This document shows positions 5,076 through 35,436 of a stretch of DNA of 64,000 nt, piece by piece (within the stretch, counting starts at the first letter, position 1; each line of letters opens with the position of its first letter). The notes under the pieces were generated by a model. That model made no database searches, was not told the DNA's origin, and saw nothing but the letters and a program-made list of their open reading frames with translations. Origin of the DNA: Bacteroidales bacterium (lineage in GTDB: Bacteria; Bacteroidota; Bacteroidia; Bacteroidales; PWNQ01); assembly GCA_003557725.1 (NCBI GenBank), contig PWNQ01000041.1, positions 8,481-72,480 of the forward strand, written 5' to 3'. The position numbers and the translations under genes are program-made.

Positions 5076-5092
5076 TTTTCCGGGAGGTTATT

Positions 5093-5680
5093 GTGAACAG
5101 TGAAAAATTTAATATCTGCTTTCTTCGTTCTTACCCCTATGAGCCTACTCAGGATCAGGTAAAGGCCATATACATTCTATCCCGTTTTATTTTTACGCTC
5201 AGGGAGCGGCCGCTTTTTGTTCTTAAAGGGTATGCGGGAACGGGTAAAACGTCTATAGTCAGTACATTGGTTAAGGTTCTCCCTGTAGCCGGGCAGAAAT
5301 CCGTTTTGCTGGCACCTACAGGAAGGGCTGCTAAAGTGCTAAGCAGCTACTCCGGAAAGCCGGCAACCACTATTCATAAACGAATCTATTATACTGCACC
5401 AACCCCCGAGGGAGGGATGCAGGTAAGCCTTCAGGTCAACCGCTTTAAAGACACTATCTTTGTAGTGGACGAGGCATCCATGATCCATGATAACAGCCAT
5501 GAATCCGGCGGCTTTGAGGGAAGGAGTCTGCTGGATGACCTTATCCGCTTTGTTTATAATGGACCAAATTGCAAGCTGGTCCTTATCGGCGACGAAGCCC
5601 AGTTGCCTCCGGTAGGGGCAGAGCTTAGCCCTGCCCTGGATATGGAATGGCTTAAACGATCCTTTTCACTCACCGCATGA
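5093..5680 (+). CDS. RecD-like SF1 helicase, N-terminal fragment (Walker A domain), ends at an in-frame TGA
   Basis: GYAGTGKTS Walker A and VVDEASM Walker B (AAA_30-like). Ends at TGA 5678-5680, in the same frame as the next ORF. Confidence 0.7.
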   Translation: MNSEKFNICFLRSYPYEPTQDQVKAIYILSRFIFTLRERPLFVLKGYAGTGKTSIVSTLVKVLPVAGQKSVLLAPTGRAAKVLSSYSGKPATTIHKRIYYTAPTPEGGMQVSLQVNRFKDTIFVVDEASMIHDNSHESGGFEGRSLLDDLIRFVYNGPNCKLVLIGDEAQLPPVGAELSPALDMEWLKRSFSLTA

Positions 5681-6529
5681 ATGGCACAAATGAGGAATGT
5701 GGTCAGGCAGGCGAAGGAGTCGGGAATACTTATGAATGCTACCGGGTTGAGAGAAAAACTGGAGAACCAGGACGTGGAACTGCCCCTGTTTAACACACAA
5801 AACTATACCGATATTGAACGCGTACCCGGGTATGACCTGCAAGAAGTAATGGAGCAAGCATTTAACTCCCCGGACATGGCCAATGACGCAGTGATGATCA
5901 CCCGGTCCAACAAACGGGCCAATCGCTTTAACCAGGAAATTAGAACCCGAATTTTGTTCCGGGAAGAGCAAATTGATGCCGGCGACCGGCTAATGGTGGT
6001 GAAAAATAATTACTTTTGGCTGCAAGGACATGAGCAAGAGGAAGCTGGATTTATTGCCAACGGGGATATGATCCAGGTACTGAAAATTAACGGATACGAT
6101 ATGCATGCCGGATTCCGGTATGTGAATGCGGTTATACAAATGCTGGATTATCCCGCAATTAAGCCCTTTAATGTGATTATGCTTACAGATACCCTGGATT
6201 CACCGTCGGCAGCACTAACCCGGGAGCAGCAACTGGAGCGGTATAATGCCTTTATGGATGACCTGGACTATATACAATCCAAAGGGGAAAAAAGAAAAGT
6301 GCTCCGAAAAAACCCTATGTATAACGCCTTGCAAGTAAAGTTTGGCTATGCTTTAACTTGTCACAAAACACAGGGTGGACAGTGGAAGCATGTTTTTGTA
6401 GACCAGGGGTATATCACGGAAGATGCATTGGACCAAAATTACCTGAGGTGGTTGTATACGGCGGTGACACGGGCTACGGAAAAATTGTATCTGGTTAATT
6501 TCCGGGATGAGTTTTTTCCTGATGAATGA
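5681..6529 (+). CDS. RecD-like SF1 helicase, C-terminal fragment
   Basis: Starts at the ATG directly after the TGA. Carries helicase motifs: VVRQAKESGIL, the SF1 C-terminal motif ALTCHKTQGGQWKHVFV, and YTAVTRATEKLYL. Confidence 0.7.
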   Translation: MAQMRNVVRQAKESGILMNATGLREKLENQDVELPLFNTQNYTDIERVPGYDLQEVMEQAFNSPDMANDAVMITRSNKRANRFNQEIRTRILFREEQIDAGDRLMVVKNNYFWLQGHEQEEAGFIANGDMIQVLKINGYDMHAGFRYVNAVIQMLDYPAIKPFNVIMLTDTLDSPSAALTREQQLERYNAFMDDLDYIQSKGEKRKVLRKNPMYNALQVKFGYALTCHKTQGGQWKHVFVDQGYITEDALDQNYLRWLYTAVTRATEKLYLVNFRDEFFPDE

Positions 6530-7001
6530 GAACGGTCGCTTGTGCATGCATCCCTTCCTCACGTCCGATGAATCCTATTTGCTCTCCTGTTTTGGCTTTA
6601 ATATTGATCTGTTGGGGTGAGATCTTCAAATGACCTGCCAGGATATCCACCATATGGGGGATATGAGGAGCCAGCTTTGGCCTTTGGGCATGAATTGTAC
6701 AGTCCAGGTTTACGATGGAAAAGCCTGCGTGGTGCAACAGCGACATAACGGCTTGCATCATCACCGTGCTTTTTACATTTTTCCACCGGGGGTTGGTATC
6801 GGGGAAGTGTGTGCCGATATCTCCTTTTCCCATGGCCCCCAGCAAGGCGTCAATGATGGCATGAATGAGAATGTCTCCGTCGGAGTGGGCCTGGAATCCC
6901 TTGCTGTGACGGATGGTAACGCCGCCAATAACCAGAGGCAGCCCAGGCCGCAGCCGGTGAGTATCTGATCCAGTGCCGATACGCATCATAAGGGTGTTCA
7001 T
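6495..7001 (-). CDS. ispF: 2-C-methyl-D-erythritol 2,4-cyclodiphosphate synthase
   Basis: MRIGTGSDTHRL, HSDGDILIHAIIDALLGA, GDIGTHFPDT. The ATG at 6999-7001 overlaps the porV stop as TAATG. An alternative start is M6 at 6986. Confidence 0.9.
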   Translation of the reverse strand: MNTLMMRIGTGSDTHRLRPGLPLVIGGVTIRHSKGFQAHSDGDILIHAIIDALLGAMGKGDIGTHFPDTNPRWKNVKSTVMMQAVMSLLHHAGFSIVNLDCTIHAQRPKLAPHIPHMVDILAGHLKISPQQINIKAKTGEQIGFIGREEGMHAQATVLIHQEKTHPGN

Positions 7002-20696: not shown

Positions 20697-21131
20697 TCAG
20701 TTGGAGATGTATAAGTTGTTACCAGTATAATGGGTTCGGTAGGTTTTTAATCCGCGGGTGGCCGGCCCCTCAAAAACGGAACCATCCAGCAGCAGGTAAC
20801 GGGATAAACAGGTGGAGTCAATCATGGTAAGACCGTTATCCTCCACGACAACACGGGCATGCTGCTTGTGATGGTCGTAAGGACAGGCTCGCTCATATGC
20901 CCTGAAATCATCCTGTGACATACGATATACAATGATCCCCCGGTACCCACCGGTAATATAAATGTGGTTCCCGATAATGCTGAGATCTCCATATAACGTT
21001 GAGGACAGATCTAGGTTTATGCTCACATGTACATTGGGAACAGGATCCTGAAACTCCTTGTCACAGTGTGGAAGAAGCACGGCAAGAAGAATAATCGCCG
21101 GTTTAAAAAAATATTTGTATCTTTCAGCCAT
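20697..21131 (-). CDS. Hypothetical lipoprotein
   Basis: ORF with the signal/lipobox-like region AILLAVLLPHCD. No confident family assignment. Confidence 0.5.
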   Translation of the reverse strand: MAERYKYFFKPAIILLAVLLPHCDKEFQDPVPNVHVSINLDLSSTLYGDLSIIGNHIYITGGYRGIIVYRMSQDDFRAYERACPYDHHKQHARVVVEDNGLTMIDSTCLSRYLLLDGSVFEGPATRGLKTYRTHYTGNNLYISN

Positions 21132-21336: not shown

Positions 21337-21681
21337 ATGTTACGCATATTGTTAAAGTCCATGCTCCTGTTTATTATTTGCTTGCCACTGGTTACATACA
21401 CCGCTTGCAATGCCACACGGCAATCCAGTAGTGCCAGGGAGAAAACAGAGCAAAGACAAAGGGAGCAGGCCGAGAGGCAGAGGCAGGAGTATCAGGAGCG
21501 AAAAGAGAGACACCTGGAAATTCAAAGCGATGATTCCCGGGCACGAATGAAAGACATGCAGAAAAAATCGGAGCGGTATAACTATAATAAGAAGCGATTT
21601 TTTCTGGCCCGCTGGTGGGATCAGGTGGTCCATAAAATACGGATAAGGCAGGGAAGAAGGCCGCAAAGAGGACATTTATAG
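21337..21681 (+). CDS. Small charged lipoprotein (hypothetical)
   Basis: Lipobox VTYTAC followed by an E/R/Q-rich helical region. Ends 19 nt before the sensor kinase gene, so it is probably co-transcribed. Confidence 0.5.
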   Translation: MLRILLKSMLLFIICLPLVTYTACNATRQSSSAREKTEQRQREQAERQRQEYQERKERHLEIQSDDSRARMKDMQKKSERYNYNKKRFFLARWWDQVVHKIRIRQGRRPQRGHL

Positions 21682-21699
21682 AGGTTTAAACAAAATAAT

Positions 21700-24600
21700 A
21701 TGAGCAGATTCCTGCTGCTTACGTTTTATTTGGTGTATGCTTTTACACCATGGCTTCATGCACAGGAGGGGCCGGTATACTCACAACACTACGCTACGGA
21801 AGTGGTTAAGAGTGAGCAAGGCCTTTCTCAAAACTCCGTGAGAAGCATTTTTCAGGATTCCAGAGGGCTTATGTGGTTTGGCACCTGGGACGGGCTGAAC
21901 CGGTTTAACGGACTTTCATTTCATATTATCCGTTCAGACTTCTGGGGAGAACCGGGACATTTATCCAATCATACTATTAATGTAATCTATGAAGATCACC
22001 ATAATTATTTGTGGATTGGAACGGATTATGGTCTGAATCGACTTGACCCAAAGACCATGGCGTTTAAGGCCTATTTTCATGAGCCAGGCAACCCTGAAAG
22101 CCTTCCCAGTGACACAATAAAAGCCATTGCCAGCGACCGGCAGGGTAATCTGTGGATTGGAACACAGCAGGGACTGGTTAAGCTTGTAGATGAGACGGGA
22201 AAATTCCTGCGGGTCGTTCCCGGTGAGGGAAATGATGCTCGCTCTGCCCAGGTGAGAACACTGTTCTCAGACTCCCGTGGCAGGCTATGGATAGGTACCG
22301 CTAAAGGACTGTTTTTGAAGGAAAAGAATAACCATGGCATTGGTCGTATTACAGACCCTCACAGCAATGAATGCCCTTTGATATCACCGGGAATTAACGT
22401 GGTGAGGCAAGTGGGAAGTCAGTTGATTATGGTGGGAACGGAAGAAGGTATATCCATTTTAGATTTTCAAGGGGCCTGCCAGGGGCATATTACTCCTCAA
22501 AACTCAAAAGGACAGCTTAAAGACCCATATATCATGGACCTTTGCCCCGACCAGAGTGGCAAGGTGTGGATTGCTACCTCCGGTGGAGGAATATCCTTTT
22601 ATTATCCCCAGACAGGTAAGGTGCGAAGCCTGGACCAGGTTCCCGGGTATGCCGCCGTTAATGAAGCTTTTGTCAATAGAATATATGAAGATGAGCAAGG
22701 GATTATTTGGATTGGATATGCCTGGAAAGGTCTGGCGAAAGTGGTACCCGCACGAAAGTTCTTTAATCGTTATTCTAAAGGCGAACTGCCGGGAGAAGGA
22801 CTGGTCGGAAGCTCCGTTTGGGCTGTAAATGAGGTGGCACCCAATACATTCTATGTGGCAACAGACAGAGGAATTAGTGTGCTGGAAAGCGGAAAAGGGA
22901 TAGTTAACAACCTTACTACATATGACGGTTTGAGCACTAATCATATACGAAGCTTATTGAAGTGCAGGAATGATGCAATATGGGTGGGAACCAATGACAG
23001 AGGACTGATCCGGATTAGCCGGGAAAAGGGAGATACTACACTGGAATTCTTTGGAAATAAAGCTAATGGAAGGTATAAAGAGTTGTATAATAACGTTATC
23101 ACCGGATTGCTTCAGGATGGACCTGGCTACATATGGGCTGCTACCAATTATGGTCTTTACCGATTTCATCCCGACAGTATGAGTGAATCGTTTACGGCTT
23201 TCCTGCATGAACCCAATAATACGGCTTCTATCAGCCATAATATGGTATATAGCGTTTTTGAAGATGACAGAAATACCATCTGGCTGGGAACCTATAACGG
23301 ACTCAATAAATACAATAGAGAAACGGGGGTGTTTACAGCCTATAAACATATTACCGGGGATCCTAATAGTATATCAACCAATAGGATATTTGGAATCAGC
23401 CAGGATGAAAGCGGCACCCTGTGGGTGGGAACCATGGGAGGAGGCCTTAATAAAATGGATCCCATAACAGAAAAATTCAGCCACTATGTGCATACCCACG
23501 GGCTTGCCAATAACGTGGTCTATAATATTATCCCCGATGAAATGGGGTACTTGTGGCTCAGTACCAACAGGGGACTTTCCAGATTCTCCCCGGGAAATGA
23601 GCAGTTTGTAAACTTCGATGTTAATGATGGCATCCAGGGATATGAGTTTAACCTGGGAGCAGCATTTAAAAGCAGCGATGAAAAGATCTTTTTCGGGGGA
23701 ATGAACGGACTGAACTCCTTTTATGCGCTGGAAGTAAAAAGAAACCAGTACATCCCCAAGCTGGTGATCACCAATGTAAGTGTTTATAATCAAAAACTCA
23801 ATAAAACGCTGGAGGATGGGGATACCATTATTTTGTCTCATAAAGATAATTTTATATCATTGGAATTTGCTGCTTTGGATTATACCAACCCGGTGAAAAA
23901 CCAGTATAAATACCGGTTAAAGAATGTTTCCCGTCAATGGATCCATGTCTCACCGCCAAAAAATACGGCAGAGTTTACCAAGTTGCCTCCCGGGGAATAT
24001 GAGTTTTTTTTAAAAGGCAGCAATAGTGACGGAATATGGAATGAACAGGGCATGCGGGTGTATATCATTATCGAGCCGGCCTGGCACCAGACCAGACTTT
24101 TTCGGTTTGGCAGTGCAACATTGATCCTATTGCTGGTGCTTTTTGCTGTTGCCTGGAGGATCGGACAAATCAGAAAAGAACAGCAAGCCGAAAGGCAAAT
24201 CTTTGAGCTGGAGAGAAAAGCGCTAAGGCTTCAAATGAACCCCCATTTTATTTTTAATACCCTGAACTCCATCCAAAGCTTTGTTTTGAAACGAGAAAAG
24301 AAAGCCGCCGTATCTTATCTGAATAAGTTTTCCAAAATGATACGGCAGGTATTATATAACTCTGATAAAAGCTTTGTGCTGTTATCCGACGAGATGGTAT
24401 TGCTGAAGAATTATATAGAGCTGGAGAGGCTACGCTTTGATTCAGGATTCGATTATGAATTTTATGTGGACCCCGGTGTGGATGATGACTTTATATCTAT
24501 TCCACCCATGCTTATTCAACCGCATGTGGAAAATGCCATCCTTCATGGGCTTATCCCCCTAAGGGACAAAGGTGGCGTGCTCACCGTTTCTTTTTTGCAA

Positions 24601-24849
24601 AATAGCCGGCAAACCATTAAATGCGTGGTGGATGACAATGGCATCGGAAGAGAAGCGGCAGGGAAAATAAAAAAACAATCCAAAAACAAATACCGGTCAA
24701 GGGGTATTAGTATCACCAGGGAACGCCTAAACAGAATTAATGAGATGTACAACCATGAGTTGTCGGTGGACATAGAGGATAAATACCATAGGGACGGCAC
24801 CCCGGCCGGCACAAAAGTGACGCTGATCATACCGGTGAAAAATGAATAA
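21700..24849 (+). CDS. Sensor histidine kinase with periplasmic two-component-regulator propeller/Y_Y_Y domain and a LytS-type His_kinase core
   Basis: Repeated beta-propeller motifs (LWIGT, GLNRF, GLSRF). TM helix ATLILLLVLFAVAW. NPHFIFNTLNSIQSF (LytS-type histidine kinase motif) and a C-terminal HATPase region (DDNGIG). Confidence 0.9.
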   Translation: MSRFLLLTFYLVYAFTPWLHAQEGPVYSQHYATEVVKSEQGLSQNSVRSIFQDSRGLMWFGTWDGLNRFNGLSFHIIRSDFWGEPGHLSNHTINVIYEDHHNYLWIGTDYGLNRLDPKTMAFKAYFHEPGNPESLPSDTIKAIASDRQGNLWIGTQQGLVKLVDETGKFLRVVPGEGNDARSAQVRTLFSDSRGRLWIGTAKGLFLKEKNNHGIGRITDPHSNECPLISPGINVVRQVGSQLIMVGTEEGISILDFQGACQGHITPQNSKGQLKDPYIMDLCPDQSGKVWIATSGGGISFYYPQTGKVRSLDQVPGYAAVNEAFVNRIYEDEQGIIWIGYAWKGLAKVVPARKFFNRYSKGELPGEGLVGSSVWAVNEVAPNTFYVATDRGISVLESGKGIVNNLTTYDGLSTNHIRSLLKCRNDAIWVGTNDRGLIRISREKGDTTLEFFGNKANGRYKELYNNVITGLLQDGPGYIWAATNYGLYRFHPDSMSESFTAFLHEPNNTASISHNMVYSVFEDDRNTIWLGTYNGLNKYNRETGVFTAYKHITGDPNSISTNRIFGISQDESGTLWVGTMGGGLNKMDPITEKFSHYVHTHGLANNVVYNIIPDEMGYLWLSTNRGLSRFSPGNEQFVNFDVNDGIQGYEFNLGAAFKSSDEKIFFGGMNGLNSFYALEVKRNQYIPKLVITNVSVYNQKLNKTLEDGDTIILSHKDNFISLEFAALDYTNPVKNQYKYRLKNVSRQWIHVSPPKNTAEFTKLPPGEYEFFLKGSNSDGIWNEQGMRVYIIIEPAWHQTRLFRFGSATLILLLVLFAVAWRIGQIRKEQQAERQIFELERKALRLQMNPHFIFNTLNSIQSFVLKREKKAAVSYLNKFSKMIRQVLYNSDKSFVLLSDEMVLLKNYIELERLRFDSGFDYEFYVDPGVDDDFISIPPMLIQPHVENAILHGLIPLRDKGGVLTVSFLQNSRQTIKCVVDDNGIGREAAGKIKKQSKNKYRSRGISITRERLNRINEMYNHELSVDIEDKYHRDGTPAGTKVTLIIPVKNE

Positions 24850-24868
24850 TCCATAAACCTGGAAACAA

Positions 24869-25618
24869 ATGATAATTAATGCTGTAATTATTGATGATGA
24901 AAAGCACTCCCGGGCCACTTTGCAAGACATGATCCAGGAGTATTGCCCTGAAGTTCACATCGCCGGAATGGCTGATGGTTGTGAATCAGGAGTAGAGATC
25001 ATTGAAAAATGTAAACCCGGACTGGTGTTTCTGGATATCCAGATGCCTGATGGAAGCGGTTTTCGTGTGCTGGAGCAAACCAAAGAGAGAAACTTTGAGG
25101 TGATCTTTACCACTGCATACGACTCCTTTGCCATTAAAGCATTTAAATATAGTGCGCTGGATTACTTGCTAAAGCCAATTGACGGAATAGAACTGCAGAA
25201 TGCCGTGGAAAAAGCCGTGCAAAGAAAAACCAACTCCTCAGGAGCCGCCGTGGAAATGCTACTGGAAAACCTCAAACGGAAAGAAAAACCCGGAAAGATC
25301 GTGCTGTCCACCTTTAAAGGCCTGCACGTAGTGGAAATCAGTCAGATTGTCCGGTGTAAAAGTGAAGATTATTATACCCGGTTCTTCTTTAAAGATAAAA
25401 CAGAACTGCTTGTATCCAAAACACTTAAAGAGTACGAAAGCATCCTGGAAGATCATCAATTTATCAGACCACATAAATCACACCTTATTAATATAGAGTT
25501 TGTAAAAAACTATATGAAATCTGACGGAGGGTATATCCTGCTTGCCGATGGTTCCAGAATACCTGTGGCCCGTAGAAAAAAGGACGGGATAGTTAAGTTG
25601 CTTAAAGAGCTTGAGTAA
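24869..25618 (+). CDS. LytTR-family response regulator
   Basis: Receiver domain (IIDDE, LVFLDIQMPDGSG, DYLLKP) with a C-terminal LytTR DNA-binding domain (FIRPHKSHLINIEFV, RIPVARRKK). Starts 20 nt after the kinase gene. Confidence 0.9.
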   Translation: MIINAVIIDDEKHSRATLQDMIQEYCPEVHIAGMADGCESGVEIIEKCKPGLVFLDIQMPDGSGFRVLEQTKERNFEVIFTTAYDSFAIKAFKYSALDYLLKPIDGIELQNAVEKAVQRKTNSSGAAVEMLLENLKRKEKPGKIVLSTFKGLHVVEISQIVRCKSEDYYTRFFFKDKTELLVSKTLKEYESILEDHQFIRPHKSHLINIEFVKNYMKSDGGYILLADGSRIPVARRKKDGIVKLLKELE

Positions 25619-25637
25619 CAAGGTGGCGGTTGCTGCT

Positions 25638-25742
25638 CCCAACGATAAAGGGTGAATCCGCTGAAAATCAGATGCAAATAAGGGTCCGGGGCAAAGTTTA
25701 TCTTCAGTAGATGTGAAAAATCTGTGCCTTTAGACCGGACTC
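25638..25742. repeat. 5'-truncated copy of the repeat family (right two-thirds, retains the right terminal repeat)
   Basis: TAAAGGGTGAAtCCGCTGAAAATCAG...GGGGCAAAG...CTTCAGtaGATGTGAAAAATcTGTGccTTTAGACcGGACTC aligns base by base with 12412-12507. Starts 20 nt after the LytTR gene stop. Confidence 0.55.
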
Positions 25743-25783
25743 AAGAGTAATAAGGTCAGTATGGAAGAGGACCATTTAATAAA

Positions 25784-25848
25784 CCCGGGGTGTTTTTTCT
25801 CAAATACTCTGGATAGATTTATATCTTTGCCGGGTGTTTTTTCAAATA
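25784..25848 (+). repeat. About 20-bp direct repeat CCGGG(G)TGTTTTTT(C)TCAAATA, two copies
   Basis: cccggggtgttttttctcaaata (25784-25806) and ccgggtgttttttcaaata (25830-25848). The copies flank the TATCTTTG box at 25822-25829. Confidence 0.4.
25822..25829 (+). promoter_or_regulatory. -7 box TATCTTTG between the LytTR gene and the acidic-protein gene
   Basis: Exact TAnnTTTG match. A weaker TATTTTTA at 25913-25920 lies closer to ATG 25952. Confidence 0.35.
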
Positions 25849-25849
25849 G

Positions 25850-25902
25850 ACCGTTAACTGATTGAAAAGGCCCGTTAACTGGATTTAATACCATTTAACG
25901 GG
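25850..25902 (+). promoter_or_regulatory. LytTR-type operator candidate: two direct CCGTTAACTG repeats plus one inverted copy
   Basis: The 9-mers ACCGTTAAC (25850-25858) and CCCGTTAAC (25871-25879) are separated by a 12-bp spacer. The 10-mer CCGTTAACTG is identical in both copies. An inverted near-copy, CCATTTAACGGG (25891-25902), is the reverse complement of CCCGTTAAaTGG. Located 230 nt after the LytTR regulator gene and 50-100 nt before ATG 25952. Confidence 0.45.
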
Positions 25903-25951
25903 AAGTTCGTTGTATTTTTACACCAAAATTCAGGCGTTGTTATGCGCCATC

Positions 25952-26437
25952 ATGCTTATGGAAGATCTGCTACTGTTACTTTTGGGGTTAGTCTGGCTGG
26001 GAGCGAGTTACTACCAGTCGCAAAGGAAAAAGAAGGCCGAAGAAGAGCGCCGGAGCGCCGCTGTGACCAAATCCGGTGATCATAATGAAATGGATGATGA
26101 GGAGCCTTCAGGAAAAGAGTCTTTTCTGGATAAAATGATGGAAACCATTGATCAGGAAGGGTCAGGACTGCTTCAGGACCTGGAAAAGCAGGCAAGTAAC
26201 CAGTTCTCCAGCGGGGAAATAGATGACAAGAATGGGGAGATAGCAGAGAATGAAGAGGTGGGAAGTAATAGCCAGGCAGAAGAGAGCGAAGAATCATTAA
26301 CGGCTTCGGCAGGGTTAACCAATTTATCCCGGAGGAAAAAACAAGTCAAAAATCAACAATGGGCAAGAAATCTGGTGCGGGATTTTGACGGTAAAAAGGC
26401 CGTTATTTATTCTGAGATCCTCAACAGGCCTTACTAA
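25952..26437 (+). CDS. Small acidic membrane-anchored protein (hypothetical)
   Basis: ATG at 25952 or 25958 gives an N-terminal TM helix (LLLLLLGLVWLGASYY). This is followed by an E/D/S-rich low-complexity region and a C-terminal motif KAVIYSEILNRPY. The TTG start at 25910 lies in promoter-like sequence. Confidence 0.5.
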   Translation: MLMEDLLLLLLGLVWLGASYYQSQRKKKAEEERRSAAVTKSGDHNEMDDEEPSGKESFLDKMMETIDQEGSGLLQDLEKQASNQFSSGEIDDKNGEIAENEEVGSNSQAEESEESLTASAGLTNLSRRKKQVKNQQWARNLVRDFDGKKAVIYSEILNRPY

Positions 26438-26533
26438 TATAAAAAAATGCATTTTTGATTCCCGGCTGTTAAATCTTTTATATTTTTACAGCCCCTAAAA
26501 AGCACATAAAAAAAACAACATAAAATTACAGGT

Positions 26534-29500
26534 ATGTTTCGAAAGTTAATGACAGTAGTTGTCCTGTTATTCGCCACATTTTATTGGGCGTATGGACAAT
26601 CAGGAGCCTTAAGAGGTAAAGTAATCGATGCCGAAACAGGAGAACCGGTACCTTTTGCCAACGTAGTAGTTGAGGCAGGAGGAAGTCAGGCCGGTGGAGC
26701 CACTTCAGACTATGATGGGAACTATACCATCAGGCCCCTTTCTCCGGGAAGGTACGATGTGAAAGCGTCTTACGTAGGATATAAGCCGTTGATGATACGT
26801 GGTGTGATCATTAATGCCGACCAGGTGCGCTTTATGGATATAGAAATGGAGCCCACCGCGGAAACCCTGGAAACCTTTGAAGTGAGGGACTACAGGGTGC
26901 CCCTTATTGATAAAGACCAGACTACCACCGGAGAAACCGTAACACGGGAAGACATTGCCAAGCTGCCCGGACGGTCTGCCACTGCTGTGGCCGCTACTGT
27001 GGGGGGTGTGTTCTCACAGGATGGAGAAATGGGAAGCATCCGGGGAGCACGGTCTGAAGGAACGGTAATGTATATCGATGGAGTAAGGGTTAGAGGAACT
27101 TCATCCGTACCACAGTCGGCCCTGGAGCAAGTCTCTGTTATTACCGGAGGAACCCCGGCACAATACGGCGATGCAACCGGGGGGATCGTTAACATTACCA
27201 CCAGAGGCCCTTCCCGGCAATTCGGAGGTGGAGGAGAACTGATTACCTCTCAATTCCTGGATAACTGGGGCTATAATATGCTCGGATTTAATGTCCAGGG
27301 CCCGATCCTCAGAGATAAAGAAACCGAAAGATCATTGCTGGGCTTTATGCTTACCGGTGAGGTGAGCTACCAGGAAGACCCCAGACCGTTTGCCGTACCT
27401 TACCACCAGGCCACGGATGAAAGAATTGAGTACCTGGAAAACAACCCCTTCCGGCCTACGGGCACAGGGTTTGGCGCTTTTTACAATGCCACTTATACCC
27501 GTATGGAAGACCTGGAAGCCACCAGAACAAAACAATATGCTGAAAATTACTCCATCAACCTCAACGCCAAAGTTGACGTGGGACTGGATTTAAACACCAA
27601 CCTTACATTTGGCGGGTCTATGCACCACCGGGGCGGATATAACTGGAGTATGGCCAATGCCATGTTCAACGCCGGAAATAACGGAGTGTATGAAGATAAT
27701 ACCTACAGATTCTATGGCCGCTTTACCCAAAGATTCCCCACCGACCGCGACAGCCCTTCGCTGATACGCGATGTGAACTATACCATTCAGGCCGACTTCT
27801 CCCATTATGACCGCGTATTACAGGACCGTGACCACCAGGATAACTTGTTCAACTACGGATATATTGGAGATTATAAAACCTATAAAGTGAATTCCTTCGA
27901 GCGGGGCGATGACACTATCCTGGGATTCTCCGACGTATGGATACATAATGGATTTAGAGATACCCTGGTAACTTTTACCCCCGGAGATGTTAATGAGCAA
28001 ATAGCTGCTTATACATCTGATTATTACAACCTCTACGACCTGCACTCCGGAATGTACTCCAATAAAGTGCTGATCCAGCAGGGACAAGGCCTCCTTAACG
28101 GAATGAACCCCCAGTCGGTGTATGGGCTCTATACCAATGTGGGATCCCCATACGGGTCTTATCAGAAAATCCAAAACCAGCAATACAGTATTAATGCCAG
28201 TGGCTCGGCAGGCATCGGGAACCATGAGATTCGTTTTGGCCTTTTGTACGAGCAGCGCATTGACCGGGCCATTACTTATAACGCAACCGGCTTGTGGAGG
28301 TTGATGCAGCAGGTGACCAACCGGCATATCGAACAGTTGGACCTGAATAACCCCATCGCTGTGTATGACGCCTATGGCGTTTTCCAGGATACGGTAATGT
28401 ACAACCGCTTGTATGATGAGGGATTCCAGACGGCTTTTGATGCTGCAGTTAGAGAAAAACTGGGACTGCCGGTGGACGGACTGGACTGGATTGACGTGGA
28501 CAACCTGGACCCCTCATTCTACTCCATAGATATGTTCAGCGCCGATGAGTTGCTGAATGCCGGAGACCAGTACGTAAACTACTATGGGTACGACCACACC
28601 GGAGAGACCTATGGAACCCGACCCAGCTTTGAAGAGTTTTTTACAGCCACTGATGAGAACGGAAACTTTACCAGACCCATCGCCCCTTTTGAACCCATTT
28701 ATATGGCCGGATATATCCAGGATCGCTTTACTTTTGATGACCTGGTATTTAATATAGGAATAAGGGTGGACCGCTATGACGCCAACCAGAAAGTGCTCAA
28801 AGACCCATTCCTCCTGTATGAAGCAAGAACCGTTGGCGAAGTGGATGACCTGGGACCACACCCGGGGAACATGGGCGATGATTATGTGGTGTATGTGGAT
28901 GACTACAACAACCCTAACGCTATTCTGGGATATCGTAGCGGAATGGAATGGTTTGATGCACAGGGCACTTCAGTGCAGAACCCTTCTTCTATTGAAGCCG
29001 GAACAGGAATTAACCCCTATCTGGTTAACCCCGATCAAACCGCAATCAATGCCAGTGCATTCGAAGATTATGATCCTCAGGTAACGGTAATGCCCAGAAT
29101 CTCATTTTCTTTCCCAATATCCAGAGAGGCTCTGTTCTTTGCTCATTATGATGTACTTACCAAGCGACCCACCTCAGGGGCACGACTGGATATCCTGGAC
29201 TACTACTTTATTGAAAGCCGGGGGCAAAGCACCCTTAACAACCCTAACCTGAAGCCGGAAAGAACCACCGATTACGAGGTAGGATTCCAGCAAGTTCTGG
29301 GGCCCACTTCTTCTCTTAAGCTTTCTGCCTATTACCGGGAGATGAGAGATATGGTTCAGGCCTTCCCATTTACCGGAGCTTATCCTGTTCCTTATATTTC
29401 TTACAGCAACATGGACTTTGGTACCGTTAAAGGACTAACGGTTGCTTATGACCTGCGAAGAACGCGCAACATGCGCCTGAGAGCAAACTATACACTGCAG

Positions 29501-30163
29501 TTTGCTGATGGAACCGGCTCTTCTGCCACCACTTCCCTCTCACTGATTCGCGCGGGACAGCCCAACCTTAGAACCACCAACCCGCTGAGTTTTGACCGTC
29601 GTCATGCCGTCAACGTGGTGGCCGATTATCGATTCAGAGGAGGAACCGATTATGACGGTCCATCCATTAGCAGAACCGTTGTGGATGACGATGGAGAACG
29701 CAGAGTAAGAACATACCGAATCCTGGAAAATACGGGAATAAACCTCACCATGAGAGGCGGGTCAGGAACACCTTATACAGCCCACTCTCAAATTTATTCT
29801 GCCGTACTGGGTGGCGGAGCTCAATTGATCGATGGATCTATAGGCGGTTCCAGACTCCCGTGGTCATTCTCTATGGATGCACGCATTGACAGGGATATCC
29901 AACTGGGCGAAGAGGGAAGAACCCACCTGAATATCTACCTTACTGTTCTTAATGTGCTGGACAATAAAAATGTACTCAACGTATACAGCGCTACCGGAAG
30001 CCCCGATGATGATGGATTCCTTGCAGCTCCTGAATTTCAGCAACAAATTGCATCTCAAAACGACCCACAGGCCTTTTATGACCTGTACACAACGCGCATT
30101 CAAAGCCCGTATAACTACAGCCTGCCCAGAAGGATCAGACTGGGTGTAGCGTTCAATTTTTAA
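26534..30163 (+). CDS. TonB-dependent-receptor-like outer-membrane barrel with an N-terminal carboxypeptidase-regulatory-like domain (1209 aa)
   Basis: Signal peptide. CarboxypepD_reg-like region (GKVIDAETGEPVPFANVVV...DGNYTI). Plug region (TVTREDIAKLPGRSATAVAATVGGV, IRGARSEGTVMYIDGVRV, AQYGDATGGIVNITTRGP). Long barrel ending in RLGVAFNF with a terminal Phe. Confidence 0.85.
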   Translation: MFRKLMTVVVLLFATFYWAYGQSGALRGKVIDAETGEPVPFANVVVEAGGSQAGGATSDYDGNYTIRPLSPGRYDVKASYVGYKPLMIRGVIINADQVRFMDIEMEPTAETLETFEVRDYRVPLIDKDQTTTGETVTREDIAKLPGRSATAVAATVGGVFSQDGEMGSIRGARSEGTVMYIDGVRVRGTSSVPQSALEQVSVITGGTPAQYGDATGGIVNITTRGPSRQFGGGGELITSQFLDNWGYNMLGFNVQGPILRDKETERSLLGFMLTGEVSYQEDPRPFAVPYHQATDERIEYLENNPFRPTGTGFGAFYNATYTRMEDLEATRTKQYAENYSINLNAKVDVGLDLNTNLTFGGSMHHRGGYNWSMANAMFNAGNNGVYEDNTYRFYGRFTQRFPTDRDSPSLIRDVNYTIQADFSHYDRVLQDRDHQDNLFNYGYIGDYKTYKVNSFERGDDTILGFSDVWIHNGFRDTLVTFTPGDVNEQIAAYTSDYYNLYDLHSGMYSNKVLIQQGQGLLNGMNPQSVYGLYTNVGSPYGSYQKIQNQQYSINASGSAGIGNHEIRFGLLYEQRIDRAITYNATGLWRLMQQVTNRHIEQLDLNNPIAVYDAYGVFQDTVMYNRLYDEGFQTAFDAAVREKLGLPVDGLDWIDVDNLDPSFYSIDMFSADELLNAGDQYVNYYGYDHTGETYGTRPSFEEFFTATDENGNFTRPIAPFEPIYMAGYIQDRFTFDDLVFNIGIRVDRYDANQKVLKDPFLLYEARTVGEVDDLGPHPGNMGDDYVVYVDDYNNPNAILGYRSGMEWFDAQGTSVQNPSSIEAGTGINPYLVNPDQTAINASAFEDYDPQVTVMPRISFSFPISREALFFAHYDVLTKRPTSGARLDILDYYFIESRGQSTLNNPNLKPERTTDYEVGFQQVLGPTSSLKLSAYYREMRDMVQAFPFTGAYPVPYISYSNMDFGTVKGLTVAYDLRRTRNMRLRANYTLQFADGTGSSATTSLSLIRAGQPNLRTTNPLSFDRRHAVNVVADYRFRGGTDYDGPSISRTVVDDDGERRVRTYRILENTGINLTMRGGSGTPYTAHSQIYSAVLGGGAQLIDGSIGGSRLPWSFSMDARIDRDIQLGEEGRTHLNIYLTVLNVLDNKNVLNVYSATGSPDDDGFLAAPEFQQQIASQNDPQAFYDLYTTRIQSPYNYSLPRRIRLGVAFNF

Positions 30164-30195
30164 ACCAAGTTAATAACATAAAACGCCATAAAGAT

Positions 30196-33100
30196 ATGAG
30201 TTACTTATTAAGAATTTCAGTATTGGCCATTATTGCCGTGCTGATGCTTCCCCAAGACGGACTGGCATACAAAGTCCCGCGTGATAAGGAGAGGACGCCC
30301 AATAAACAACAAAAAAGCGTTGCCTCCGCCGGATGCCTTCCCGGGACTGCACATATAGACTTGGACATTAACAACGTTCGTGCAAGGATTAACCAAAGTG
30401 GAGATATGTGGTGGGACCTGCAGGGTAACCCACGATATGAGGTGCCCAAAGGTTCAGGAAAACACTCCATGTTCTCCGCCGCCCTTTGGATGGCCGGAGT
30501 GGATGTAAATGGGCAATTGAAAGCCGCCGCACAGAGATACCGGGGGTCGGGAGTGGACTTCTGGCCGGGACCCCTATCTACGGATGGGAAGGCCACGGTG
30601 GACGCTGAAACATGTAAAGCCTACGACCGCCACTGGGTTATGACAAGAGCCATGGTGGAAGAGTTCCTGGCCTGGAGAGATGACCCGGACGAATTCCCGG
30701 AATATGTTATCCCACAGGAAATATTGAACTACCCGGCTCACGGTGACGTGTCAAAAAATCAAGCCTATTATCTGGCTCCTTTTTATGATTATACCGGTGA
30801 CGGAACTTATGACCCTACATCCGGAGACTATCCATACTATGACTTCGATAACGAACTGTGTAAAAACTATGTCCCTACCATGGAAGGAAATGGTATCCTG
30901 GAAGACCAGGTGCTTAAAGGGGACCAGACCATCTGGTGGGTGTTTAACGACAGAGGAAACGTACATGCTGAAACAGAAGCTGCACCTATAGGTGTGGAAA
31001 TCCGGGCTCAGGCGTTTGCTTTTCTTACCAACGATGAGATCAACAACTCTACATTTTATTCTTACGAGATCATTAACCGCTCTACCCATCGGCTCACCAA
31101 TACCTATTTTAGCCAGTGGGTGGATATGGATATTGGAGACCCTTATGACGACTATGTGGGCTGTGATGTGGGCCGTGGACTGGGGTATGCCTATAACGGG
31201 GAAGCTGTTGATGGTAGTGGCGGACCTAATCACTATGGAGCACAGCCACCGGCTATTGGGGTAGACTTTTTTCAGGGACCATATATAGACCCTGACGGAC
31301 TGGATAACCCAAGATTTCAGAGAGTTATTTCCTATGATATAGATACTGTCATTGTGGGAGTGGACACCATTCTGGATACATTAAGCATTGATACTGTTTC
31401 CAGGCAAATTGTTGACGCCAGCATCAATGGCGTGAACTTCGCCGATGGTATTGTGGACAATGAGCGATTTGGAATGCGCAGGTTCGTTTACCATAACAAT
31501 GTTGGTGGAGGTACCAACCCAGCTATGACTGACCCCCAGACCGGCAGTGAATACTATCAATTGCTCCGGGGAATCTGGAAAGATGGTACCCGAATGCTTT
31601 ATGGTGGTAATGCCCACCAGAACTCAGGTGCCTATGGCCCTGAGTGTGACTTTATGTTTCCCGGAGATACCGATCCGTGGAACTGGGGTACCGGAGGACA
31701 ACCACCTAATGGACCAACCTACTGGACCGAAGAGACAGCAGGGAATGTTCCTTACGACCGCCGGTTTATGCAATCTGCCGGACCATTTACCCTGGAAGCC
31801 GGTGCAGTGAATTACATCACTGTGGGTATTCCATGGGCAAGAGCTTCTTCCGGAGGCCCATTCGCCTCTGTGGAACTGCTCAGGGAAATTGATGATAAAC
31901 TCCAACGATTGTTTGATAACTGCTTCCAGGTAATGGATGGCCCGGATGCACCGGACCTGACCATTAGAGAAATGGACAGAAAACTGATCCTGTATCTTTC
32001 CAACAGGCCCACTTCAAATAACTACAAAGAGCAGTACGAAGAGTGGGATCCCACCATTATTACTCCGGACAGCATTACCGATGATTCTCTCAGGTATGAC
32101 TCCATGTATCGCTTTGAGGGATATCAGATTTTCCAGCTAAGAGATGCCTCAGTGTCTGTCACCGACATCCGTGACCCCGACCTGGCCCGGGAAGTGGCAC
32201 AAGTGGATATTAAAAACGGAGTGGGACAACTGGTTAATTTTGAGAGAAGCCAACGTCTGGATGCCAATGTGCCTATGGAAATGGTGATGGGCGGCGATGA
32301 AGGCATCAAGCACTCGTTTGTTATTACGGAAGACGCTTTTGCTTCCGGGGACAGAAGACTGGTTAACCACAAAAAATATTATTTCGTAGCTATTGCCTAT
32401 GCATATAACGAATATATGCCGTATTCACAGGAGCCCGGGGTTGTTAATGGTCTCTATGGCCAGCAGCAACCATACCTGGCAGGGCGAAAGGGTGCTACAG
32501 GAGCCATTACCCCGGTTACTGCGATCCCCCATCTCGTCCAACCTGAAAGAGGCGGAACGGAAGTGCGCTCTGAGTACGGAGACGGGCCTATGATTACCAG
32601 AATAGAAGGACAAGGTAACGGAGGGTTGAACCTTCAGCTTACCGAGGAAAGTATCCAGGAGATACTGAACTCTCCACAACACAGGACTAAGCATCCAGTG
32701 TATGAACATGGAAAGGGACCCATTGATGTGAAAGTAGTTGACCCCGTTCGAGTAAAACCGGGCAATTATACCCTGATGCTCACAGTGAGTAACGACAGCA
32801 TTGACTACGCCGGATGGGTGCTGCTCAACACCAATGACCTTACAGATACCATCGCAGTTAGTCAGCATACCATTGATATTAATAATGAACAGCTATTGCT
32901 GGACTTAGGTCTGTCCATTACCATTAACCAGGTAGGGAAACCAGGCGATGCTAACCTGCAGAACAGCGGCGTAATCACCTCTTCCATCAGCTTTGCTGAC
33001 AGCTCTAAGCGCTGGCTCTCCGGCGTACCCAATAACGATGCCTCCATAGCCCTTAACTGGATCCGGTCAGGTACCATGGACGACCCCGCAAATCAGGATA

Positions 33101-34263
33101 ATAACGATTATTCTACAGGGCCGTCACACAGCAGAATTTTCCTGGATCCCAATGAGAATTTTGAGAAGATCATTGGAGGAACCTGGACGGCCTACCGAAT
33201 GGCTGCACATACCAACTTGCTGGATCACGGGCCTGCCTTGGGAGGAGCTTTTCATCAGCAAAATGATATGGGTAAGTTGTCCAGTGTGGACATCGTGTTT
33301 ACCGATGATAAGAGCAAATGGACCCGTTGCCCTGTAATTGAAATGGGTGATGATCAGGCTCTTACCGAAGGGAACGCACAGCAATGGAGACTGCGCGAAG
33401 CGGCTTCGGTGGATAAAAATGGAAACCCCGACAACAGCGGAACAACCGGCATGGGCTGGTTCCCCGGATATGCCATCAATGTGGAAACCGGAGAAAGACT
33501 GAACATGATCTTTTCTGAAGATTCCTGGCTCGTTGGTGAAAATGGCAGAGACATGAAGTGGAACCCAACAGGAAGATACTTTACCGACCTGGGAGTGCCT
33601 CTTCTTGGCGGAAAACACTATGTATATGTGCTTGATCATGATAATCAAAGCCCTGCATATGATGAGGGAAAATGGGCTTACGATCAGCTCCGGACTGAAA
33701 GCCCTGCGCTTATCGGCCTTATGACCCGTAGCATAATGTGGGTGGGCATGCCCATGCTTAATCCACAATTTGAACTGCTGGAGACGGAAGCCACCATCAG
33801 CATACGCGTTCAGCGACCTTATGAACGGTATTACTCCACTCCTGACTTCCAGGAAAACAACCCCATTAATGACAATTATCCGGTTTATCAATTCTCTACC
33901 GATGATATTTCTGCTCGCAGAGGGGTGACATCTATTGCTAAAACCATGTTGGACACCATCCGGGTGGTTCCCAACCCCTATTATGGTTACTCCCAGTATG
34001 AAACCAGCCAGCTGGATAACCGGGTAAGGATCACTAACCTGCCTGAAGTCTGTACTATCACCATTTACAGCCTGGATGGCACATTGGTGAGAAGGTTTAC
34101 CAAAGACTCCTATCTTACCAGCATTGACTGGGACCTGAAGAACCATGTGGGCATCCCCATATCCAGCGGTATGTACCTGGTTCATGTTAATGCACCGGGA
34201 ATAGGCGAAACGGTAATTAAATGGTTTGGCTCTATGCGCCCCGCTGACCTGGAGGCATTCTAA
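30196..34263 (+). CDS. 1355-aa secreted protein of unrecognised family with a T9SS C-terminal sorting domain
   Basis: Signal peptide MSYLLRISVLAIIAVLMLPQDGLA. The last ~100 aa (nt 33958-34260) look like a T9SS CTD (VVPNPYYG, ITIYSLDGTLVRRF, SSGMYLVHV). I recognise no catalytic motif. It starts 33 nt after the receptor-like gene. Confidence 0.8.
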   Translation: MSYLLRISVLAIIAVLMLPQDGLAYKVPRDKERTPNKQQKSVASAGCLPGTAHIDLDINNVRARINQSGDMWWDLQGNPRYEVPKGSGKHSMFSAALWMAGVDVNGQLKAAAQRYRGSGVDFWPGPLSTDGKATVDAETCKAYDRHWVMTRAMVEEFLAWRDDPDEFPEYVIPQEILNYPAHGDVSKNQAYYLAPFYDYTGDGTYDPTSGDYPYYDFDNELCKNYVPTMEGNGILEDQVLKGDQTIWWVFNDRGNVHAETEAAPIGVEIRAQAFAFLTNDEINNSTFYSYEIINRSTHRLTNTYFSQWVDMDIGDPYDDYVGCDVGRGLGYAYNGEAVDGSGGPNHYGAQPPAIGVDFFQGPYIDPDGLDNPRFQRVISYDIDTVIVGVDTILDTLSIDTVSRQIVDASINGVNFADGIVDNERFGMRRFVYHNNVGGGTNPAMTDPQTGSEYYQLLRGIWKDGTRMLYGGNAHQNSGAYGPECDFMFPGDTDPWNWGTGGQPPNGPTYWTEETAGNVPYDRRFMQSAGPFTLEAGAVNYITVGIPWARASSGGPFASVELLREIDDKLQRLFDNCFQVMDGPDAPDLTIREMDRKLILYLSNRPTSNNYKEQYEEWDPTIITPDSITDDSLRYDSMYRFEGYQIFQLRDASVSVTDIRDPDLAREVAQVDIKNGVGQLVNFERSQRLDANVPMEMVMGGDEGIKHSFVITEDAFASGDRRLVNHKKYYFVAIAYAYNEYMPYSQEPGVVNGLYGQQQPYLAGRKGATGAITPVTAIPHLVQPERGGTEVRSEYGDGPMITRIEGQGNGGLNLQLTEESIQEILNSPQHRTKHPVYEHGKGPIDVKVVDPVRVKPGNYTLMLTVSNDSIDYAGWVLLNTNDLTDTIAVSQHTIDINNEQLLLDLGLSITINQVGKPGDANLQNSGVITSSISFADSSKRWLSGVPNNDASIALNWIRSGTMDDPANQDNNDYSTGPSHSRIFLDPNENFEKIIGGTWTAYRMAAHTNLLDHGPALGGAFHQQNDMGKLSSVDIVFTDDKSKWTRCPVIEMGDDQALTEGNAQQWRLREAASVDKNGNPDNSGTTGMGWFPGYAINVETGERLNMIFSEDSWLVGENGRDMKWNPTGRYFTDLGVPLLGGKHYVYVLDHDNQSPAYDEGKWAYDQLRTESPALIGLMTRSIMWVGMPMLNPQFELLETEATISIRVQRPYERYYSTPDFQENNPINDNYPVYQFSTDDISARRGVTSIAKTMLDTIRVVPNPYYGYSQYETSQLDNRVRITNLPEVCTITIYSLDGTLVRRFTKDSYLTSIDWDLKNHVGIPISSGMYLVHVNAPGIGETVIKWFGSMRPADLEAF

Positions 34264-34374
34264 GGATATATGGCACGTGAGCCCGGAAGGGTGCTAACAC
34301 CATTTTGGCTACAGCACTTTTCCGGGTTCATAAAACCAACAACTAATTATGAATACCAGACAAAATTCAGAACA

Positions 34375-35436
34375 ATGAGACATAAAGTAAAGAGTTTGAT
34401 TTCAATGGCCTTGGGAGGAATAATCCTTTTTTCCGTCCTTAATGCCAGTGCCGGTAACAAAGACCGGGCCGGACAAGCGGGAGCTGATGAGTTATTGATT
34501 AACCCATGGGCTAAATCATCAGGATGGGCCTGCGCCAATACCGGAGGGGTCAGAGGAATGGAAGCCCAATACATCAATGTTGCCGGACTGGCTTTTACAG
34601 AAACCACCCAAATCGGGTATACACACACCAACTATCTGGCTGGGACAGGAATTAGTATTAATACGCTGGGACTGGCACAAAGGGTGTCGGAAACAGGAGG
34701 GGTCCTGGGCCTGGGAATTATGTCTATGTCCCTGGGCGATATTGACCGCACCGAAGTAGATATGCCCGAAGGAGGTATTGGAACTTTTGCCCCAAGCTTC
34801 CTGAATGTTAACCTCTCTTATGCCAGAGCCTTTTCCAATAGCATCTTTGGTGGCGTTAATGTTAAAATTATCTCCCATCAAATTGCGGATATCAGCGCCA
34901 GTGGTATGGCTATCGATGTTGGGGTGCAATATGTCACCGGACGTACCGATAATATTAAGTTTGGAGTTGCCCTGAAAAATGTGGGAGCACCTATGAAGTT
35001 TACAGGCGATGGAATGTCGCTGAGGACGATAATCACTGAAACAAGGCACACCATGACTGTGGAACAGCGCTCTGATGCATACGAATTGCCCGCATTGCTC
35101 AGAATTGGAATCACCTATGATATCGATCTGGCTGATAACCACATCCTTTCTCTGGCCGGAAACTTCCAGTCCAACTCTTTCAGGAAAGATATATTCTCCC
35201 TGGGAGCACAATACCAGTTTAGTGACTACCTTGAAATCAGAGGTGGATACAACTACGAGGAGGGACTGCTTAATGAGGGAGACCGTACCACCGTATTCAC
35301 CGGTCCTACTGCCTGCCTTTCTCTGAAAGTGCCCATTGACCGCGAAGAAAATAGCTTTTTTACCATAGATTATTCATACAGGGCTACGCATCCGTTTGAT
35401 GGGGTTCATGCTTTTGGAACTTCCATCGCACTGTAA
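34375..35436 (+). CDS. PorV/PorQ-like outer-membrane beta-barrel (second PorV-like gene in the window)
   Basis: From ATG 34375: signal peptide MRHKVKSLISMALGGIILFSVLNASA. Then AGQAGADELLINPWAKSSGWACANTGGVRGMEAQYINVAGLAF, which has the same pattern as the PorV N-terminal motif at 7001-8197. About 350-aa barrel ending in an aromatic-rich strand. Confidence 0.6.
   Translation: MRHKVKSLISMALGGIILFSVLNASAGNKDRAGQAGADELLINPWAKSSGWACANTGGVRGMEAQYINVAGLAFTETTQIGYTHTNYLAGTGISINTLGLAQRVSETGGVLGLGIMSMSLGDIDRTEVDMPEGGIGTFAPSFLNVNLSYARAFSNSIFGGVNVKIISHQIADISASGMAIDVGVQYVTGRTDNIKFGVALKNVGAPMKFTGDGMSLRTIITETRHTMTVEQRSDAYELPALLRIGITYDIDLADNHILSLAGNFQSNSFRKDIFSLGAQYQFSDYLEIRGGYNYEEGLLNEGDRTTVFTGPTACLSLKVPIDREENSFFTIDYSYRATHPFDGVHAFGTSIAL

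Follow-up and report, generated by a model that had tools for sequence, protein, structure and literature searches.

A conserved direct-repeat pair between a LytTR regulator gene and an outer-membrane gene module in Bacteroidales: a probable LytTR operator that recurs before type IX secretion genes

The intergenic region between a LytTR response regulator gene and a group of outer-membrane genes in a Bacteroidales bacterium (contig PWNQ01000041.1; the whole 64,000-nucleotide stretch analysed is called the window throughout) contains two identical direct copies of the 10-mer CCGTTAACTG, whose starts lie 21 bp apart. We consider it likely that a dimer of the adjacent regulator (24869-25618) binds to this repeat pair and would thereby activate the operon at 25958-35436. 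Both the regulator as the binder and activation as the sign of control are what we infer from sequence and conservation. The pair is kept at every syntenic locus compared, its geometry is that of published LytTR sites, and in related genomes it is found again at a constant spacing from promoter boxes, often before genes of type IX secretion system (T9SS) cargo. The features of the window are collected in Table 1.

The pair had been proposed in a sequence-only reading of this DNA, and a direct check of the sequence bore out the coordinates given there for both copies. Read as 9-mers (ACCGTTAAC at 25850-25858 and CCCGTTAAC at 25871-25879), the copies are separated by exactly 12 bp, as had been stated. 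The repeat array starts 232 nt past the regulator stop codon, which ends at 25618 (about 230 nt had been claimed), and the distance from the proximal copy to the start of the small-protein gene measures 70-76 nt, within the 50-100 nt proposed. The distal half-site has the extended form aGA-CCGTTAACTG-ATTg. Published LytTR sites consist of repeats of 9-11 nt with spacers of 11-13 nt, and the proposed LytTR-type geometry fits them (PMC4847170, PMC6193735): the window has two identical 10-mers with 11 nt between them, in keeping with the 21-22 bp period of the family. A single 8-mer is not significant in 64 kb (two matches against 1.18 expected, with two reached in 36 of 100 shuffles), whereas the pair at fixed spacing, with up to three mismatches allowed, occurs once in the window and not at all in 100 dinucleotide-preserving shuffles. 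No further credible intergenic pair was found in the window with up to five mismatches and spacers of 10-12 nt.

Conservation at orthologous loci had been set beforehand as a test of the operator, and the pair is kept at all 26 syntenic loci (cited below, where needed, by labels such as L002). Nine independent loci form an unbiased sample, obtained from a protein search with the regulator and contig look-ups at 57-89% identity together with one metagenome contig at 53%; 17 further syntenic loci came from the motif scan described below, and regulator identity over the whole set is 47-100%. In each of the nine unbiased loci, the regulator gene is directly followed by two 10-mers that resemble CCGTTAACTG and depart from it at 0-3 of their 20 positions. 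Over all 26 loci the mismatches number at most three (at most two in the distal half-site), the spacer is always 11 nt, the regulator gene, coding for a Response_reg and LytTR protein in the window, lies directly 5', and the kinase gene adjoins it. The order of kinase, regulator, small protein, receptor and ~1355-aa protein is kept in eight of the nine unbiased loci; the ninth (L008) is a short contig that stops soon past the small-protein gene. When ten orthologous regions were aligned, the sole conserved blocks were the two 10-mers and a third element (TAyTTTTAC, which is GTATTTTTAC in the window), and the sequence of spacer and flanks was unconserved. As a control, 78 loci with paralogous LytTR regulators (identity 38-50%, without receptor synteny), drawn from a metagenome scan with the regulator that returned mostly such paralogues, yielded no pair better than five mismatches. 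The repeat pair is specific to this regulator's orthologous group.

Individual loci show some variation. In L091 (6905-6973), the canonical pair is preceded, at a distance of 27 nt, by an extra direct copy of CCGTTAACTG, which appears to stem from a local duplication that takes in the downstream AATATTACTTTTTAA. The metagenome contig L007 (SL_3KL_010_SEDDRAFT_10064253) is 100% identical to the window from the 3' end of the regulator gene through the operator to the start of the receptor gene, and its name points to sediment as the environment sampled.

The third conserved block has the look of a promoter box. The flavobacterial sigma-A box TAnnTTTG sits at -12 to -5 (PMC9723704), and GTATTTTTAC is this box with A for the final G. 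In the window and its orthologues, the TA of the box lies ~31-33 nt after the proximal half-site. With this TA taken as -12/-11, the predicted transcription start falls near 25924, which would place the repeats at the positions given in Table 1, with the pair centred at about -58. A sigma-70 promoter scan, whose scope excludes promoters of the Bacteroidota type, reported nothing at the repeats. The window also contains a second box upstream of the operator, within GATTTATATCTTTGCC. This box is kept in the closer orthologues (L002, L003, L004, L087, L089, L091, L142, L165 and L188) and absent in the clade with ~50% regulator identity (L095, L107, L138 and L145); in these four and in L149, the regulator stop codon abuts the repeats and the upstream box is missing. 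Its absence from the more distant clade excludes the upstream box as the conserved partner of the operator. Possibly it is a second promoter, independent of the regulator, with transcripts running through the operator, and it may add basal read-through transcription. A near-duplicate of ~20 nt (CCGGGGTGTTTTTTCTCAAATA and CCGGGTGTTTTTTCAAATA, at 25785-25806 and 25830-25848) flanks the upstream box; its upstream copy is not seen in L002.

An exact scan for CCGTTAACTG-N11-CCGTTAACTG was run in one genome per species (185,579 species), and it showed that the pair precedes many other genes in related genomes. The scan returned 117 stretches against ~1 expected by chance (1.2e12 positions / 4^20). 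About 25 of them, from cyanobacteria, Lactobacillaceae, Zoogloea and others, were judged by eye to be noise and set aside as coding repeats or tandem repeats of short period; ~20 are orthologous kinase/regulator/receptor loci; and ~64 are other sites, located in Bacteroidota metagenome-assembled genomes (MAGs) and in MAGs labelled Chlorobiota. All but two of these 64 lie outside long open reading frames (62/64). Their extended half-site consensus is tA-CCGTTAACTG-ATTt, 16-17 nt with flanks. Promoter-like sequence follows them at fixed offsets, with T at +36 in 83%, T at +37 in 94% and A at +33 in 69% of the sites; TAnnTTT[G/A] starts at +29 to +35 in 43/64 against 0-4/64 at five control offsets, and TTG occurs at +7 to +13 in 24/64 against 3-8/64 at control offsets. 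The promoter box of the window has exactly the same offset as the boxes of these other sites. The distance to the -7-type box is fixed in the window and orthologues, and in the other sites a TTG lies at +9 to +11. The genomes richest in exact pairs have 8 (ELA706), 7 (Chlorobiota M_MetaBat.92), 5, 5, 5 and 4 of them, and five genomes contain the orthologous regulator locus together with further sites. Any LytTR gene lies within the 8-kb stretch at only 2 of ~80 other sites, where the regulator would act in trans.

Many sites have three direct repeats with a 21-bp period (L106, L108, L130, L133, L144, L158, L160, L164, L175, L182, L185, L194, L201, L203 and L211, among others), which suggests binding by more than a dimer; the most upstream copy in such sites is often CCGTTAACTt. 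Two loci of a Thermoanaerobaculia MAG (L102 and L177, DATLWH01) have four to five tandem 21-bp units of GGAGGCCGTTAACTGCCTGTC at contig ends, with period and core as in the operator.

The genes that follow the other sites were classified by family in a set of 46 first downstream open reading frames, each 120 aa or longer. Sorting domains for type IX secretion are found in 18 of the 46, of which 15 are T9SS type A domains (Por_Secre_tail / TIGR04183) and three are T9SS type B domains (CHU_C). Adenosine deaminase accounts for four of the 46, the TonB C-terminal domain for three, and ExbB and SusC/TonB-dependent-receptor-like proteins for two each. Homologues (34-50% identity) of the 1355-aa protein of the window are encoded directly downstream of exact pairs, without a regulator gene, at L129, L170 and L209. 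These families and homologues indicate that the targets are mostly cell-surface and secreted proteins, which matches the module next to the operator in the window.

The mechanism that we propose would begin with phosphorylation of the regulator by the Reg_prop/Y_Y_Y kinase (21700-24849). Two LytTR domains would then occupy the two half-sites, which are two helical turns (21 bp) apart on one face of the DNA and centred at about -69 and -48, and the bound regulator would recruit or assist RNA polymerase at a weak promoter that has a good -7-type box (GTATTTTTAC). The operon so switched on would encode the small membrane protein, the TonB-type outer-membrane protein, the probable T9SS cargo and the PorV/PorQ-like protein. 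The same pair, at the same distance from the -33/-7 boxes of many genes in related genomes, often those of T9SS cargo, would make up a regulon. Since the pair recurs at many other promoters in related genomes, the regulator probably controls such a regulon and not the adjacent module alone. The earlier proposal that the kinase/LytTR pair is the likely regulator of the downstream module is supported by conservation, geometry and specificity, with the amendment that the site is not private to the locus.

Several observations weigh against this account. The window promoter has no recognisable -33 element, and an inverted third copy of the repeat stands in its place. Transcripts from the upstream box would carry the repeats at about +15 to +45, where a bound regulator more typically represses. 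The two genomes with the most sites, ELA706 and Chlorobiota M_MetaBat.92, have no orthologous locus among the exact matches. Another LytTR protein could serve most of the non-orthologous sites; at L132, a 112-aa LytTR-only protein is encoded right beside an exact site. Lastly, no pair with up to five mismatches lies upstream of the kinase/regulator operon (21337-25618) in the window, so that positive autoregulation, which is typical of many LytTR systems, is not evident.

The strongest rival accepts the pair as a real transcription-factor site and assigns it to another regulator, such as a further LytTR protein (one that stands alone, for instance) or a global factor with no relation to it, leaving the adjacent two-component system as a mere neighbour. 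It has some footing because most sites (~64) are far from any LytTR gene and one, at L132, adjoins a LytTR-only gene; also in its favour, no orthologous kinase/regulator locus appears among the exact matches in the genomes that have 7-8 sites. We nevertheless regard it as unlikely, given that the pair directly follows the regulator gene in 26/26 syntenic loci, that its geometry is LytTR geometry, that paralogous regulators lack the motif, and that five genomes combine the orthologous locus with extra sites. In one genome, CAIOJS01, the orthologous site (L203) even has the three-repeat extended form of that genome's other sites. The L132 locus (3454-6750) has a T9SS cargo gene, then the 112-aa LytTR-only gene (6156-6494), then the exact pair at 6718, and its MAG (CAZJDA01) also holds an orthologous kinase/regulator locus, L196.

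Another rival keeps the regulator as the binder and reverses the sign. The true promoter would be the upstream -7 box, and the regulator, bound downstream of its start, would block it; a mixed switch, with upstream transcription repressed and downstream transcription activated, is a variant. This would suit the TAnnTTTG box that the window and nine closer orthologues have ~21 nt before the distal repeat, as well as the overlap of the inverted third copy with the -33 position of the downstream promoter. The upstream box is, however, missing in the more distant orthologues (L095, L107, L138, L145 and L149), whereas the box ~31 nt downstream of the repeats is the element kept in all clades and in 43/64 other sites, and its arrangement is the activator arrangement described for LytTR proteins (PMC6193735). 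Repression is accordingly improbable, distinctly more so than control by another regulator.

The inverted third copy, which the sequence-only reading had placed at 25891-25902 as part of the array, is present in the window and does not belong to the conserved architecture. With the proximal copy it forms a 12-nt inverted repeat that is 92% complementary (25871-25882 / 25891-25902, 8 nt between the arms), and the probability that a one-mismatch third copy falls within 50 nt by chance is ~0.004 as estimated from the window match rate. It is found in the window and the identical L007, is degenerate in L002 (regulator 89% identical), and is absent in the other orthologues examined, including L003, L004, L087 and L089. 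We therefore rejected it as a part of the operator, since it is kept in the window's own lineage only and so falls outside the core architecture. That it provides a second, inverted binding mode or self-limitation is speculation. The string ACCATTTAA occurs twice, at 25771-25779 and at 25890-25898; the second occurrence is within the inverted third copy, and the first is not conserved in L002.

The same inverted repeat could be taken as an RNA element, with 25871-25902 as a terminator or attenuator stem or as part of a structured leader, and the 116-nt putative leader does fold with z = -3.85. We hold this to be very improbable: RNAalifold over 10 orthologues predicts 0 pairs, the inverted arm is missing from most orthologues, there is no T-run after the stem, which the terminator scan does not report, and an Rfam scan of 25400-26700 with E up to 1 gave no match. 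An intrinsic terminator or structured RNA leader was rejected on these grounds. That the pair is a chance or low-complexity repeat without function is the least credible reading of all, for although the 8-mer alone is not over-represented and some genome matches are tandem or coding repeats, chance is excluded by conservation at 26 orthologous loci whose flanks diverge, and the pair is absent from shuffles and recurs at a fixed distance from promoter boxes.

Table 1. Positions, strands and supporting evidence for the operator, promoter elements and genes of the window; promoter-relative positions are predicted.
Feature	Position	Strand	Evidence or remark
Distal half-site CCGTTAACTG	25851-25860	+	predicted ~-73 to -64; sequence and conservation
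Spacer, 11 nt	25861-25871	+	length kept, sequence free (ungapped comparison of 26 loci and alignment)
Proximal half-site CCGTTAACTG	25872-25881	+	predicted ~-52 to -43; sequence and conservation
Inverted near-copy CCGTTAAATG	25892-25901	-	at the position expected for the -33 element; lineage-specific
-7-type promoter box GTATTTTTAC (TAnnTTTa)	25911-25920	+	same or near-same (TAyTTTTAC), at the same distance, in orthologues
Upstream box GATTTATATCTTTGCC, perfect sigma-A -7 consensus TAnnTTTG (25822-25829)	25816-25831	+	21 nt upstream of the distal half-site; clade-specific
Sensor kinase: Reg_prop beta-propellers, Y_Y_Y, LytS-type His_kinase (PF06580)	21700-24849	+	domain matches; presumed partner of the regulator
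Response regulator, receiver and LytTR	24869-25618	+	Pfam Response_reg 1.3e-18, LytTR 5.8e-16; presumed binder
Small protein, N-terminal membrane helix and acidic middle	25958-26437	+	translation and orthologue starts; first gene of the presumed target operon
TonB-dependent-receptor-like protein (CarboxypepD_reg/Plug/TonB-dependent barrel)	26534-30163	+	domain matches; presumed target operon
1355-aa protein	30196-34263	+	sole match a C-terminal T9SS type A sorting domain, below threshold (20.1 bits, cut-off 23)
PorV/PorQ-family protein	34270-35436	+	139.9 bits, cut-off 90

The best NCBIfam match of the regulator is BtsR-like, and a PDB sequence search with the regulator returned receiver-domain matches only, with nothing on DNA-contact residues. 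The ATG of the small-protein gene is at 25952 or, judged by orthologue starts (ATGGAAGAT / ATGGATGAT), more likely at 25958, and no Pfam or NCBIfam family matched its product. The 1355-aa protein is a probable T9SS cargo. The sensor region of the kinase matches NCBIfam T9SS_PorZ (E = 7e-30, 104 bits, under the 260-bit cut-off), which probably reflects common Reg_prop beta-propellers. Two small open reading frames upstream of the kinase gene, at 21337-21681 (+) and 20697-21131 (-), encode 114 and 144 aa and keep their position in most orthologous loci (L002, L004, L089, L091, L093, L111, L145, L165 and L188).

LytTR regulators are abundant in Bacteroidota. In a literature search that covered few subscription journals, no binding motif or regulon was found defined for any Bacteroidota LytTR regulator, and nothing relevant was retrieved on the motif string or on LytTR combined with T9SS or Bacteroidetes. 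The element itself is a standard LytTR operator in kind; what appears to be new is the motif, the link from it to a Bacteroidota pair of Reg_prop/Y_Y_Y-LytS-type kinase and LytTR regulator, and its recurrence before T9SS cargo genes. We give about even chances to the wider proposition that CCGTTAACTG-N11-CCGTTAACTG is the operator of an undescribed regulon, widespread among environmental Bacteroidota and the neighbouring Chlorobiota-labelled lineages, in which a Reg_prop/Y_Y_Y LytS-type kinase and a LytTR regulator would switch on T9SS cargo, PorV/PorQ-like and TonB/ExbB/TonB-dependent-receptor-like components co-ordinately, in a dedicated T9SS cargo circuit separate from PorXY-SigP. The candidate operator is precise and testable, being defined by its 10-mer core, its 21-bp period and its constant distance from the -7 box. 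It comes with a candidate regulator, a candidate kinase and a set of candidate targets in which type IX secretion cargo predominates. If the proposition is true, T9SS cargo genes would be transcriptionally co-ordinated outside the PorXY-SigP pathway, and the motif could be used to annotate such regulons in MAGs. For the window, an anonymous intergenic region would become a promoter/operator with defined parts.

Among known systems, the loose LytTR consensus with a GTT core, [TA][AC][CA]GTTN[AG][TG], reportedly goes back to Nikolskaya and Galperin in 2002, and ACCGTTAAC matches it at 8/9 and CCCGTTAAC at 7/9 positions. Because LytTR sites have no common consensus (PMC4847170), such resemblance is a weak feature. 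Leaving aside placement just before a -33 element, which would first have to be mapped, the window operator has every LytTR-family feature that we tested. YpdB and BtsR (YehT) of E. coli resemble the window system in pairing a LytS-type kinase domain (PF06580) with a receiver/LytTR regulator. Work on the yhjX promoter is said to give the YpdB site a spacer of 11 nt. YpdB binds a direct repeat of the 10-mer GGCATTTCAT upstream of its target promoter (PMC4847170). The half-site sequence of YpdB/BtsR is unrelated to that of the window, their partner kinases have a LytS membrane domain in place of the large Reg_prop/Y_Y_Y beta-propeller sensor, and their targets are pyruvate transporters, whereas the window targets would be outer-membrane and T9SS genes with a Bacteroidota -33/-7 promoter.

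The AgrA P2/P3, ComE and PlnC/D sites of Firmicutes are, like the window operator, imperfect direct-repeat pairs with a GTT core and a 21-22 bp period, and ACCGTTAAC shares 7/9 bases with ACAGTTAAG, the AgrA consensus given in the sequence-only reading. The conserved core of the window differs from these sites in being a 10-mer, 16-17 nt with flanks. They lie, as in the window, just upstream of a sub-optimal promoter and are centred near -60; AgrA sites precede promoters that stay sub-optimal unless the activator is present (PMC4227749), and the window pair, centred at about -58, is close to the AgrA value of about -60. AgrA, ComE and PlnC/D belong to peptide quorum-sensing systems with strong positive autoregulation, whereas no site precedes the kinase/regulator operon of the window. 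A quorum-sensing autoinducing circuit of the AgrA/ComE type does not fit the window, which has no operator before the regulator's own operon and whose neighbouring genes are outer-membrane and T9SS genes and not peptide or ATP-binding cassette (ABC) exporter genes. Autoregulation is not a defining feature of the LytTR family as a whole.

The HdrRM/BrsRM systems have LytTR direct repeats separated by 12 (11-13) bp, with 4-11 bp between the repeats and the -35 element that follows (PMC6193735). The other sites found here are similar in that a TTG follows the proximal 10-mer by ~8 nt, and the L132 site is beside a stand-alone LytTR protein. The window regulator is a classical phospho-accepting response regulator, whereas HdrRM/BrsRM rely on a LytTR-only protein with a membrane inhibitor. 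In Bacteroidota, PorXY-SigP of Porphyromonas gingivalis is likewise a two-component system tied to T9SS-related gene expression (PMC4800418). PorX has a PglZ effector domain and acts via an extracytoplasmic function (ECF) sigma factor on T9SS machinery genes. The window, with no sequence or mechanistic relationship to PorXY-SigP, combines a LytTR regulator with a DNA operator before cargo-type and PorV/PorQ-like genes.

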